A DNA stretch of 63,709 nt, counting the filler, from Collodictyon triciliatum (taxonomy: Eukaryota), in NCBI GenBank assembly GCA_043381765.1. It is 13 parts of 13 records of this genome, joined end to end, with 100 filler letters (N's around TTAATTAATTAA, not from the genome) between each part and the next. Parts side by side here need not be neighbours in the genome. Positions count along the whole stretch, not along the records: positions 1 to 4,940 come from JBHJMP010005628.1; 12 more parts are not named here. One strand, written 5' to 3'. The notes beneath the pieces are model-generated. The model saw only the letters and a program-made list of their open reading frames with translations. It did not search any database and was not told where the DNA came from. The translations under genes and the position numbers were made by a program. Below, one piece after another: positions 1-3,191 of the stretch. Positions within the stretch are counted from its first letter, which is position 1. Each line of letters opens with the position of its first letter.

Positions 1-3000
1 ACAAGCTAAGCAGCTTGACTTTCCATCAACGCTGTTGTATGTTCCTGGTCCACATAAAAGACATGATGAATTTCCAGCACCTCGGATGCTTGGATTGAAT
101 GTTCCTGCAGGGCACGGAGTACACAAATTATCTCCTGCATTGCTGTAGAATCCAGTAGTGCAATTATTACATGCCACTTGCCCCTTTATATTATTAAACG
201 TTCCGGCTTCACATTTTTTGCATATTGATTGGCCCAAAAAGTTATTATATGTTCCTTCCTCGCACAGAAGACAGTCTCTTAGGCTTGTGGAGCCAGTCGA
301 TGGATTATAAGTTCCAGTTGGACATAATAAACAAGAGGTGAGCTCATTTCCATTATTGTAAGAGCCAGTTGGACATTTTTCGCATATATTTGATTGTTGA
401 TTGAAAAAATATCCTCCTTGGCATGGACTCCAGACTTTGATAAATCTGTCAGAGCTTGCTGAAATTATCTTTGAATCAGTGGTAGCGAAAATACTATCAA
501 CGGAACTGGTGTGACTCAAAAGCGTTCGAATTTCCCTTCCATCTGATATTGTCCATATTTTGACCGATTTATCACTGCTTCCAGAATATAATTTTGTTCC
601 ATCAGGTGATATTGAAATGCTATTTACTGAGCTTGTGTGTCCATTTATTGTTCTAATTAACATGCCATCTGATATGTTCCAAATTTTGATTGTGTTATCG
701 CTGCTTCCAGAGATGATTCTTGTTCCATCTGGAGAGGTAATAACACATCTGACCGCATTTCCGTGACCTGTTATGGTTCTTGTCAATACTCCATCTGATG
801 AATTCCATAATTTTATGGAAAAATCAGCGCTGCCTGATACGATTTTTGCGTTATCTGGAGTGATGAAAACATAATTCACTCCTTTGGTATGTCCTGATAA
901 GGTACGAGTTAAAATTCCATCTGAAACTCTCCAAATATTTACAGTCATATCATCACTTCCTGATACTATAACGGAACTATCTGTTGTTATTGCTACGCTT
1001 CGAACAGCTGCAGTGTGTCCATTAAATGTTCCCAATAATAAACCATCCGAGAAATTCCACATTTTAATTGTCTTGTCGCTGCTTCCTGAAACGATTTTTG
1101 TTCCATCTGCCGAAACAACAACACTATTCACAGAATTCGTGTGGGCATTTATTGAAGGTGCTTGAGAACCATCCGCATAATTCCAAATTCTTACTGTATT
1201 ATCACTGCTTCCTGATACAATTTTAGTTTTATCTGGGCTCAAAGCAACGCTATTCACTGAGTTTGTGTGGCCTGATACTGTCAAAATCAAGCTGAAATCA
1301 GGAAAGTTCCACATTTTGATTGTTGTGTCATCGCTTCCTGATAAAAATTTCAAGCCGTCTGAGAGAACTGAAATTCCGTTTATAGTAACAGTGTGTTCGT
1401 TCATTATATGTATAGTCACTCCATTAGAAAAATTCCAAATTCGAACCGTCCAATCACTGCCTCCAGAAATAATCTTGGAGCCGTCCATAGAAATTGAGAC
1501 TGTTTTAACGATTCCAGTGTGCCCATTGAGAGTGCGAATTAAACTCCCATCTAAAATGCTTGTTATTTTGATTGTTTTATCGCTGCTTGCAGAAACAATT
1601 TTTTCTCCATCTGGCGTTATAGCAACGGAATTCACAGAATCAGTGTGAACTTTTATATCTTGGACTAGTGTTCCATCAAAAAAATTCCAAACTTTGATGG
1701 TTTTGTCTGCACTTCCGGATATAATTTTTGAGTTATCAGGAGTTAATGTCACACTCGTTACAATTCCAGTTTGCCCAGCTAACGTACGAGTTACAGCTCC
1801 ATCTAAAATGCTTGTAATTTTGATTGTTTTATCGCTACTTCCAGATACAATTTTTGTTCCATCTGCAGTTAAAGCAACTGAGTTGACTGCTTGAGTGTGG
1901 ATTTCAAATGATTGAGTCAAAGCTCCATCATCCACGTTCCAGACTTTGATCGATTTGTCATCGCTTCCAGAAATTACTTTGGAGCTATCTGGTGATAATA
2001 TTAATGCGTTCACTATGTCTGAATGACCATTCAAGGAGCGAATTAATGCGCCATCGGATAATTTCCAAATTCTGATAACACTGTCCGAGTGCCCTGTAAG
2101 AAAAAGTGATTTCGATTGAGACGAAGAAATACTTGTAATCCTAGAGCCTCTAGTGTATATTAAGCTTCCATCAGAGAAATTCCAAAGTCTTACAGTTCGG
2201 TCATGGCTTCCAGAAACAATTTTTGAGCCATCAGGAGTGACAGAAACACCCAAAACGCTACGTAGGTGACCAGTGAAAGTGCGAATCAAAGCTCCATCAG
2301 AAAAATTCCATATTTTTATATTACTATCGTCACTCCCAGAGATAATTTTTGAGCTGTTTAGAGAAATAGCTACCGTCCACACAGCACCACTATGCCCAAT
2401 CAATGTACGAATCAAAGCTCCATCTGAAAGATTCCAGATTTTGATTGTACTATCCCAGCTTCCAGAAACAATTTTTGAACCATCAGGAGTAGCAGCAACA
2501 CTGCGAACATAATTGGTATGGCCAATGAATGTACGAATCAAAGCTCCATCAGAGAGATTCCAAATTCTGATTGTGTTATCGTCACTTCCAGAAACAATTT
2601 TTGAGCCATCAGGAGTAACAGCAACACTGTTAACATAATTGGTATGGCCAATCAATGTACGAATCAAAGCTCCATCAGAAAGATTCCAGATTTTGATTGT
2701 TCGGTCTGTGCTTCCAGAAATAATTTTAGAACCATTAGGAGAAATTGCAACACTATAAACACCACTAGTATGACCAGTCAATGTGCGAATCAAAGCTCCA
2801 TCAGAAAAATTCCAAATTTTAATTGTAGAATCCCAACTTCCAGAGATGATTTTTGAGCCATCAGAAGTAACAGCAACACTGTGAACATAATTGGTATGGC
2901 CAATCAACGTGCGAATCAAAGCTCCATCAGAAAGATTCCAGATTTTGATTGTACTATCTCGACTCCCAGAAACAATTTTTAACCCATCGGGAGTAACAGC

Positions 3001-3191
3001 AACACTCCAAGCAATATTAGTATGACCTGTTCCGACAGTATAAATCGATGATACTTGAGCCATGCATGATAGAATATTTCTGAAGATGATTATCCCTACA
3101 AAAATAAAGTTTTACTACAAAATACTAAGATATTATTACATTATGAACGACTACCTATAGCAATGCGCACAGGAGTAAATCTTACAGGCAT
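1..3191 (-). CDS. Probably secreted/surface protein: signal peptide + 21 WD40 repeats + Cys-rich (GCC2/GCC3, ephrin-receptor-like) repeats; 3' end runs off the window
   Basis: ATG at 3191. Exon 1 is 3191-3155, GT-AG intron 3154-3096, exon 2 reads in one frame from 3095 to base 1. It translates MPVRFTPVRIAIG|IIIFRNILSCMAQ, then 42-aa GH...SGSxDxTIKIW repeats (21 counted), then CxxCPxGTYN repeats. It is absent from the ORF track because there is no stop in the window. Confidence 0.9.

Follow-up and report, generated by a model that had tools for sequence, protein, structure and literature searches.

Introduction

Hypervariable WD40 repeats form the sensor part of intracellular NLR-type receptors in fungi and bacteria, and canonical WD40 propellers in eukaryotes are regarded as cytoplasmic modules. 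In addition to the Podospora receptors considered below, other fungal NLRs also carry WD40 repeats that are highly conserved internally. In this study, we analyzed a WD40 gene and its paralogous copy in a 63,709-base stretch of DNA (referred to as the window) from the predatory flagellate Collodictyon triciliatum (GenBank assembly GCA_043381765.1) and compared the encoded protein with the closest described systems.

In the NWD repeats of Podospora, codons 7, 9, 25, and 27 are positively selected according to the repeat analysis in Paoletti et al. 2007 (PMC1805685). These codons border the conserved positions 8 and 26, and that analysis assigns them to two parts of the interaction face, the d-a loop and the b-c turn (PMC1805685). 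For the extracellular domain of the plant receptor kinases CRINKLY4/ACR4, a preprint (bioRxiv 10.1101/2020.08.10.245050) describes an N-terminal seven-bladed propeller, there called WD40, that is followed by a TNFR-like cysteine-rich domain. The propeller is presented as the functionally important part of the ectodomain, with a putative ligand groove (bioRxiv 10.1101/2020.08.10.245050).

The Collodictyon gene encodes 21 WD40 blades that continue directly into a cysteine-rich stalk, and four codons per blade are hypervariable in the first seven blades. The product is probably a surface receptor. We propose, with moderate confidence, that it is a giant secreted or surface-anchored protein in which the membrane-distal first propeller serves as a ligand-binding head diversified at four top-face positions per blade and is carried on two conserved propellers and a long disulfide stalk.

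Results

Organization of the gene

The window consists of 13 contigs (3.3–4.9 kb each) separated by N44-TTAATTAATTAA-N44 spacers (4941-5040 and eleven more). The contigs are not one locus, and distances or neighborhoods that cross a spacer are meaningless. On contig 1, a minus-strand open reading frame (ORF) extends from an ATG at 3063 to base 1, where it runs off the contig end, and encodes 1021 aa (P0001). The paralogue on contig 11 is an uninterrupted open frame of 1641 codons (P0002). The fusion of WD40 blades to the stalk is present in both copies, and neither the 3.1-kb ORF (1-3063) nor the 4.9-kb ORF (50334-55256) contains an internal intron. The features of the two copies are as follows.

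1-4940: contig 1, which carries the WD40 gene under study.
3155..3191, minus strand: modeled exon 1, with the start codon at 3191; it would encode the positive n-region of a putative signal peptide and the beginning of its hydrophobic core.
3096..3154, minus strand: modeled intron of 59 nt, GT..AG, phase 1; the frame rejoins ATG 3063 once it is removed.
3028..3095, minus strand: start of exon 2, which completes the hydrophobic core and adds a candidate cleavage site and a short N-terminal stretch ahead of blade 1.
2146..3027, minus strand: propeller 1, made up of WD40 blades 1-7; each 126-bp unit is hypervariable at codons 5, 7, 23, and 25.
1273..2145, minus strand: blades 8-14 (inferred propeller 2); blade 8 (2029-2145) is degenerate and 39 aa long.
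394..1272, minus strand: blades 15-21 (inferred propeller 3); blade 21 is 41 aa long and leads directly into the first cysteine motif.
1..393, minus strand: first 131 residues of the Ephrin_rec_like cysteine-rich stalk, a PF07699 match; the ORF runs off the contig end.
50334-55257: contig 11, which carries the paralogue.
53439..55256, minus strand: paralogue blades 7 to 21, of which blade 7 is cut by the contig end and starts at unit position 11.
50334..53438, minus strand: paralogue cysteine-rich stalk, 1035 residues, open at the contig end.

The intronless 3.1-kb and 4.9-kb ORFs could reflect repeat homogenization, retroposition, or foreign origin.

Repeat anatomy and structure of propeller 1

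Cutting P0001 at each GH motif gave 21 WD40 units, 19 of which are 42 aa long; blades 8 and 21 are 39 and 41 aa long, respectively. PF00400 (WD40) matched 20 stretches of P0001 with an E value of 9.8e-200, which classes P0001 as a WD40 repeat protein. Tandem Repeats Finder (TRF) detected a 126-bp array of 6.5 copies with 76% matches at 2207-3024. A preliminary description of this DNA had claimed seven 126-bp WD40 repeats, and blades 1-7 fill 2146-3027, in line with the interval given there (2146..3030). The DNA identity among blades 1-5 is 77–88%, that between blade 6 and these blades is 69–74%, and that between blade 7 and blades 1-6 is 59–66%. The description of the repeats as almost unchanged at the DNA level was therefore overstated, since the blades are 59–88% identical pairwise; only codons 30-40 (WN[LF]SDGALIRT) are nearly invariant in blades 1-6. 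We propose that blades 1-7 are young or homogenized copies of one 126-bp unit.

The residues at position 7 of blades 1-7 are W, H, Y, N, R, W, and L; those at position 23 are R, W, T, D, W, D, and H; and those at position 25 are S, S, R, N, S, S, and R. The residue lists given in the preliminary description match these three unit positions as read. All seven blades carry a W-N-x-S sequon at unit position 31.

We built an AlphaFold2 model of residues 1-345 on a 26-sequence alignment, a check that the preliminary description had proposed. The model of propeller 1 is a seven-blade WD40 ring with a mean predicted local distance difference test score (pLDDT) of 90.2 and a predicted template modeling score (pTM) of 0.84, and each blade has four strands, at unit positions 6-11, 17-22, 26-31, and 37-42. 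Positions 5 and 7 lie in the d-a loop or at the start of strand a, and positions 23 and 25 lie in the b-c turn, in agreement with the earlier placement of the variable residues on the WD40 top face. Foldseek matched propeller 1 to 2ymu_A (E 5e-33), to WDR5 (template modeling score (TM) about 0.9), and to the 7-bladed WRAP-T 7bie_A (TM 0.98, root-mean-square deviation (rmsd) 0.8 Å, 291 columns). The best structural matches are 2ymu, a highly repetitive WD40 propeller, and the designed WRAP-T propellers 7bie/7big (TM 0.97–0.98, rmsd 0.7–0.8 Å, 43–48% identity); they serve as structural comparators only, being without receptor context. Judged from the model, propeller 1 is a near-ideal, consensus-like seven-blade WD40 ring. 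Because P0001 contains 21 blades and the first propeller is modeled with seven, blades 8-14 and 15-21 are taken as propellers 2 and 3.

Substitution pattern in the three propellers

We determined the mean pairwise nucleotide differences per codon between blades. The values at unit positions 5, 7, 23, and 25 were 1.86, 2.10, 2.43, and 1.86, respectively, and those at the remaining 38 unit positions were 1.52 or lower. Nei-Gojobori counting over all pairs of blades 1-5 gave a proportion of non-synonymous differences (pN) of 0.644 at the four codons; for the other 38 codons, the proportion of synonymous differences (pS) was 0.295 and pN was 0.063. These results indicate that replacement at the four codons is far above silent change in the same units.

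In regards to blades 9-20, the contrast was weak, with a pN of 0.479 at the four codons versus a scaffold pS of 0.684, and positions 7 and 23 were among the least varied (N in 8/12 and S in 7/12 blades). The residues W, Y, R, H, and F occupy 14 of the 28 variable cells in blades 1-7 versus 4 of 48 in blades 9-20 (Fisher p 1.3e-4). Only propeller 1 has a hypervariable top face rich in W, Y, R, and H, and the top faces of propellers 2-3 are bland (N/S/K).

Paralogous copy on contig 11

P0002 aligned with residues 275-1021 of P0001 over 747 aa, which cover blades 7-21 and the first 131 stalk residues, with 81% amino-acid identity. The alignment is gapless, and repeats 8-21 are collinear between the paralogues, as the preliminary description had stated. 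For the pair overall, the synonymous rate (dS) was 0.58 and the non-synonymous rate (dN) was 0.109. The resulting dN/dS of about 0.19 indicates purifying selection, and the constraint was tightest in blades 15-21 and the stalk.

The only variable-propeller unit in this alignment is blade 7, in which SGSHDRT on contig 1 corresponds to SGSADYT on contig 11. Three residues differ among the 32 shared codons of this blade, at positions 23, 25, and 30. All three bases are changed in each of codons 23 and 25, whereas 3 of 69 bases differ in the remaining 23 codons of positions 11-35, which bears out the near-identical flanks noted earlier. The hypergeometric probability that both variable positions fall among the three changed of 32 is 0.006, calculated on one blade only. 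The end of contig 11 falls at unit position 10/11 of blade 7, at the onset of the more uniform units. The paralogue was thus correctly said to break off on entry to the homogeneous repeats, and this end is consistent with an assembly break in repeats.

Cysteine-rich stalk and other secretory marks

PF07699 (Ephrin_rec_like, previously GCC2_GCC3), whose repeated modules are of the CxxCxxGx[FYW] type, matched 25 stretches of P0002 (E 7.3e-172, 557.5 bits versus a gathering score of 23.1) and 5 stretches in the 131 stalk residues of P0001 (E 4.6e-25, 87.6 bits). Weaker NCD3G and TNFR-like matches were also found in the stalk. PF07699, NCD3G, and TNFR repeats are disulfide-bonded ectodomain modules. 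Identity as a Giardia variant-specific surface protein (PF03302) was rejected, the match of 29.2 bits being below the cut-off of 31.4. The paralogue stalk contains a tandem array of 279-bp (93-residue) units at 50334-52655 on the minus strand (8.3 copies, 87% matches by TRF), and because of this array the stalk, too, is built from young or homogenized units. No hydrophobic 19-mer occurs in P0001 or P0002; therefore, the propellers and the stalk lie in the same compartment.

The WD region contains 2 cysteines in 878 residues. Eleven of its 13 N-x-S/T sequons occupy unit position 31, which belongs to the c-d loop and lies on the other face from the variable residues. W-N-x-S/T is present in 10 of 14 blades matched by a regular expression, versus a mean fraction of 0.019 in 306 database homologues.

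Relatives of the stalk among PF07699 repeat proteins of protists were found in a EukProt transcript and in Chlamydomonas, Anaeramoeba, and Aureococcus proteins, and many of them end in one to six hydrophobic segments. The cysteine motif is shared by 19 retrieved database proteins; 9 of these have hydrophobic 19-mers beyond the stalk (three to six in 5 of the 9), 5 open with a hydrophobic segment, and none carries WD40 blades. P0095, P0224, P0245, P0298, and P0330 are long metagenome PF07699/NCD3G stalk proteins with three to six terminal hydrophobic segments. Proteins of the P0095 type suggest that cysteine-stalk receptors with multi-pass membrane domains, possibly resembling those of family-3 G protein-coupled receptors, exist in protists. 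Such a multi-pass ending is a candidate for the C-terminus of the WD40-stalk protein.

Modeled N-terminus

The unspliced frame above ATG 3063 has 16 open codons, which are hydrophobic, and meets a stop at 3114. The ORF from ATG 3191 reads to a G|GTAGTC donor, and a second in-frame ATG is located at 3275. Removal of the modeled 59-nt intron (donor GTAGTC, acceptor TTTTTGTAG), an in-frame GT-AG intron, gives 35 residues ahead of the first GH of blade 1, versus 12 from ATG 3063. In the spliced model, residues 1-9 carry two positive charges and no negative charge, the hydrophobic core spans eight residues with a hydropathy peak of 3.34 (window of 8), and a candidate cleavage site has C at -3 and A at -1 ahead of Q at residue 26. 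By these simple rules, the modeled N-terminus resembles a signal peptide. The preliminary description had combined a signal peptide, three sets of seven blades, and a Cys-rich stalk; the 21 blades and the stalk stand, and the signal peptide holds only as a splice-dependent model.

Database relatives

When P0001 was searched exhaustively against representative proteins, 486,106 of them matched at E ≤ 0.001; identity did not exceed 55% in any of the best 150. The nearest WD40 matches were mixed and included a metagenomic protein, a Spirochaetota caspase-family protein, a Sphaerobolus NACHT protein, and a Coprinopsis 'HET-E-1'. Word-indexed searches across the WD-stalk junction, in near, longer, and shorter length ranges, returned WD-only or cysteine-only proteins. 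In the ESM Atlas, only WD40 clusters were obtained, with scores of 0.85 or lower, and the 30 pattern matches from a scan of viral contigs included no relative.

The best match to propeller 1 was P0165, a metagenome protein of 1290 aa with 55% identity. P0165 has a signal-like start, fibronectin-like S/T-rich domains after the blades, and a sorting tail of the type IX secretion system (T9SS; 28.3 bits, cut-off 23). Its nine near-identical blades vary at unit positions 4, 5, 7, 23, and 25, and most carry W-N-V-S-T after strand c. Judged from its sequence, P0165 is a predicted exported bacterial HET-E-style hypervariable WD40 array of the same design as propeller 1. It differs from the protist protein in being bacterial, in its type IX export, and in being without a PF07699 stalk, and it is uncharacterized. 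Full-text searches aimed at other questions surfaced no literature on exported bacterial hypervariable WD40 arrays like P0165.

A scan of metagenome contigs gave 10 loci, of which only L009 crosses the WD-to-cysteine junction (29% identity). L009 (3,122 bp; 44-3120, plus strand) is AT-rich and encodes a signal-like start, WD40 blades (E 5.3e-61), and then CPxGxxC-type cysteine-rich repeats, in which no PF07699 match was found at E 0.001. Its coding sequence occupies three frames, as if cut by two short introns, and the blade-to-cysteine junction lies within one ORF. L009 represents an analogous layout of exported WD40 blades and a cysteine stalk in a different organism, probably a eukaryote. 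P0165 and L009 together point to a wider class of extracellular WD40 arrays, on which full-text searches outside subscription journals yielded no paper. The same searches found no publication that describes a combination of WD40 with PF07699, and CRINKLY4 was the only case of a secreted eukaryotic WD40 array.

Other features of the window

A tblastn search of P0001 against the 13 contigs gave matches only on contigs 1, 11, and 12. Contig 12 was rejected as a third copy, since an unrelated CDC20/Fizzy gene accounts for the weak matches. This CDC20/Fizzy-type WD40 gene is at 56862-58454 on the minus strand (PF24807, 299 bits versus a cut-off of 200). The GC content of contig 12 is 0.515, and the gene is apparently broken by short introns, with long low-complexity T/A-rich tracts on either side. 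Contig 2 opens with a (CACACATT)n microsatellite some 120 bases long (5041-5160).

Two freshwater metagenome DNA runs from one study shared small fractions of words with the stretch (0.08 and 0.06). With reads taken at 80% likeness, short contigs were identical at 2327-2509 and 4671-4886 (0 differences) and nearly so at 1407-1557 (1 difference). Many other metagenome pieces were 87–91% identical, which is the similarity of the contig 11 paralogue, and joints at which a piece goes back fell near multiples of 126. We concluded nothing from these matches, in which the blades of one gene cross-map and the runs may be the source sample.

Discussion

The proposed surface protein would begin with a short signal peptide split by the 59-nt intron, followed by three seven-bladed WD40 propellers that would run directly into a very long disulfide-rich Ephrin_rec_like (TNFR-like) stalk. 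The C-terminus, beyond the contigs, would most likely have one or more membrane helices. The N-terminal, membrane-distal propeller would be the ligand-binding head, in which four top-face codons per blade are nearly saturated with replacements and often encode W, Y, R, or H, and propellers 2 and 3 would serve as conserved spacers or a scaffold. New specificities would arise through changes at these four positions of each blade, as they do in fungal HET-E-type receptors, but here outside the cell, and possible ligands are prey, microbes, mates, or other cells. Secretion, surface anchoring, ligand binding, and diversification among copies are the parts of this proposal that we infer. In regards to the extracellular variable-receptor family of the preliminary description, the ectodomain-type stalk and the signature of propeller 1 support it; the variability is absent from propellers 2-3, and the family amounts to two copies.

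A number of observations weigh against a diversified surface receptor, and they bear in part on where the protein is located and in part on whether its head varies. Both contigs end inside the stalk, with the C-terminus beyond them, and the sequence covered contains no membrane anchor. The sequons of the WD region are not enriched (13 versus 12.2 in shuffles). The splice of exon 1 is modeled from DNA only, and the signal peptide was assessed from hydropathy and the -3/-1 rule only; its hydrophobic core is short (8 residues), with an arginine directly after it. A start at ATG 3063, the first in-frame start if the intron is not spliced, would give no signal peptide. WD40 and cysteine motifs occurred together in none of the 419 retrieved database proteins, which leaves no characterized relatives to learn from, although the searches favor top scorers among very many WD40 proteins and the absence of the fusion is weak evidence. 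The protein could instead be a cytosolic scaffold that starts at ATG 3063, with intracellular propellers and a CxxC-rich tail that binds metal and is not disulfide-bonded. That ATG opens the long ORF without splicing, exon 1 being a DNA-based model, and the nearest WD40 relatives include intracellular fungal NACHT/HET-E and bacterial caspase-family proteins. However, the tail belongs to PF07699 with NCD3G and TNFR-like matches, all ectodomain families, and its relatives have hydrophobic N-terminal starts and C-terminal membrane segments. Moreover, the hydrophobic codons above ATG 3063 hit the stop at 3114 only when unspliced and, when spliced, join the upstream ATG cleanly, and the WD region is poor in cysteines. 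We consider a cytosolic scaffold distinctly improbable. We give hardly any credence to an artefact, either an assembly chimera or an unexpressed pseudogene. The assembly is fragmented, both contigs end inside repeats, and the gene is known from DNA alone, but an assembly chimera is ruled out because two contigs differing at 19% of residues share the same WD40-stalk junction, and the uninterrupted ORFs of 1021 and 1641 codons with their low dN/dS are not those expected of a dead gene.

The remaining points concern diversification. Blades 1-6 are represented by one copy only, and a fixed asymmetric binding site would also give blade-to-blade differences within one protein. In relation to the repeat shuffling suggested in the preliminary description, the pairwise homoplasy index (PHI) permutations among blades were inconsistent across sets (1995/5000 for blades 1-5, 22/5000 for blades 1-6, and 1814/5000 for blades 1-7), with 11/21, 58/120, and 111/231 incompatible site pairs. 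In blades 9-20, 12 of the 101 amino-acid differences between the paralogues fell at the four positions versus 9.6 expected, so that the excess of non-synonymous change across paralogues anticipated in the preliminary description is seen in blade 7 and not in blades 9-20. These results are in keeping with a surface or matrix protein of fixed specificity. In such a protein, propeller 1 would recognize a single conserved ligand or serve as a structural element of a cell coat, the differences would form one asymmetric site on recently duplicated blades, and no repertoire would exist. The existence of two copies only, the purifying selection overall, and the database consensus of the same WD40 class, which is generally variable at the same positions, are also in favor of fixed specificity. 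On the other hand, the four codons are near saturation, whereas the synonymous sites of the same blades are not, and codons 23 and 25 of blade 7, the sole blade shared, are fully replaced between almost unchanged flanks. Fixed specificity is the strongest of the competing explanations and is possible, but we doubt it. A further explanation, compatible with a diversified surface receptor, concerns the origin of the head, which might have come from bacteria, as a hypervariable WD40 array that was exported already, before it was joined to a eukaryotic cysteine-rich stalk. P0165, the T9SS-tailed protein with the same variable positions, is the sequence that best matches propeller 1, and internal introns are absent from both ORFs (more than 3 kb and 4.9 kb). 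However, fungal NLR proteins match nearly as well (49–51% identity), the GC content of 0.35–0.39 is like that of neighboring contigs, and repeat proteins of this class align ambiguously, so that the claim depends on match identity and not on a tree. A bacterial origin of the head seems unlikely.

A bolder form of the surface-receptor proposal is that a HET-E-style WD40 sensor stands outside the cell at the tip of a rigid TNFR-like stalk, in a multi-copy repertoire that diversifies by change and exchange of 126-bp blades, as an extracellular NLR counterpart for prey, pathogen, or self/non-self discrimination. We offer this version tentatively and regard it as rather doubtful. If the protein is located at the surface, an NLR-type sensor design would have moved into the secretory pathway, on a disulfide stalk, in a lineage near the base of Amorphea. 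This would widen the known range of eukaryotic surface-receptor architectures, provide a concrete candidate for prey or partner recognition by a predatory flagellate, and offer a testable case of binding-site diversification outside the NLR context.

We compared the protein with the two systems introduced above. Like CRINKLY4, it has a propeller followed by a TNFR-like cysteine-rich part, the protist signal peptide being modeled only; no sequence relationship between the two proteins was found. Each CRINKLY4 blade has a conserved disulfide (bioRxiv 10.1101/2020.08.10.245050), whereas the protist WD region has the two cysteines noted above, and the CRINKLY4 N-terminal strand fills the pore, whereas the protist N-terminus is disordered in the model (pLDDT <50 for residues 1-11). 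Where CRINKLY4 combines a single propeller with some 90 residues of cysteine-rich domain, the protist protein combines three propellers with over 1,000 residues of PF07699 repeats. Any protist counterpart of the CRINKLY4 membrane helix and kinase would lie beyond the contig ends.

In regards to Podospora HNWD/NWD (HET-E, HET-D, and HET-R), the preliminary description had named the variable-position pattern of HET-E/HET-D, and the correspondence holds at the codon level: the codons 7, 9, 25, and 27 given in the repeat analysis (PMC1805685) become protist codons 5, 7, 23, and 25, flanking V6 and D24, after a shift of 2. Both proteins have tandem, mutually similar WD40 units of 42 residues with two codon pairs showing excess non-synonymous change, and the WD40 part finds some of its best sequence matches in fungal HET-E-like and NACHT proteins. 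The similarity of the protist units (77–88%, blades 1-5) is lower than that of HNWD. Unlike HNWD, the protist protein is without a NACHT NTPase, HET, or other effector, with at most 35 residues ahead of blade 1; its predicted context is extracellular, with a cysteine-rich stalk, and it is variable only in the first of three propellers. Because it has no NACHT and effector domains, the protein is not a member of the HET-E/HNWD family; in how it would work, its propeller 1 matches the HET-E/HNWD sensor design.

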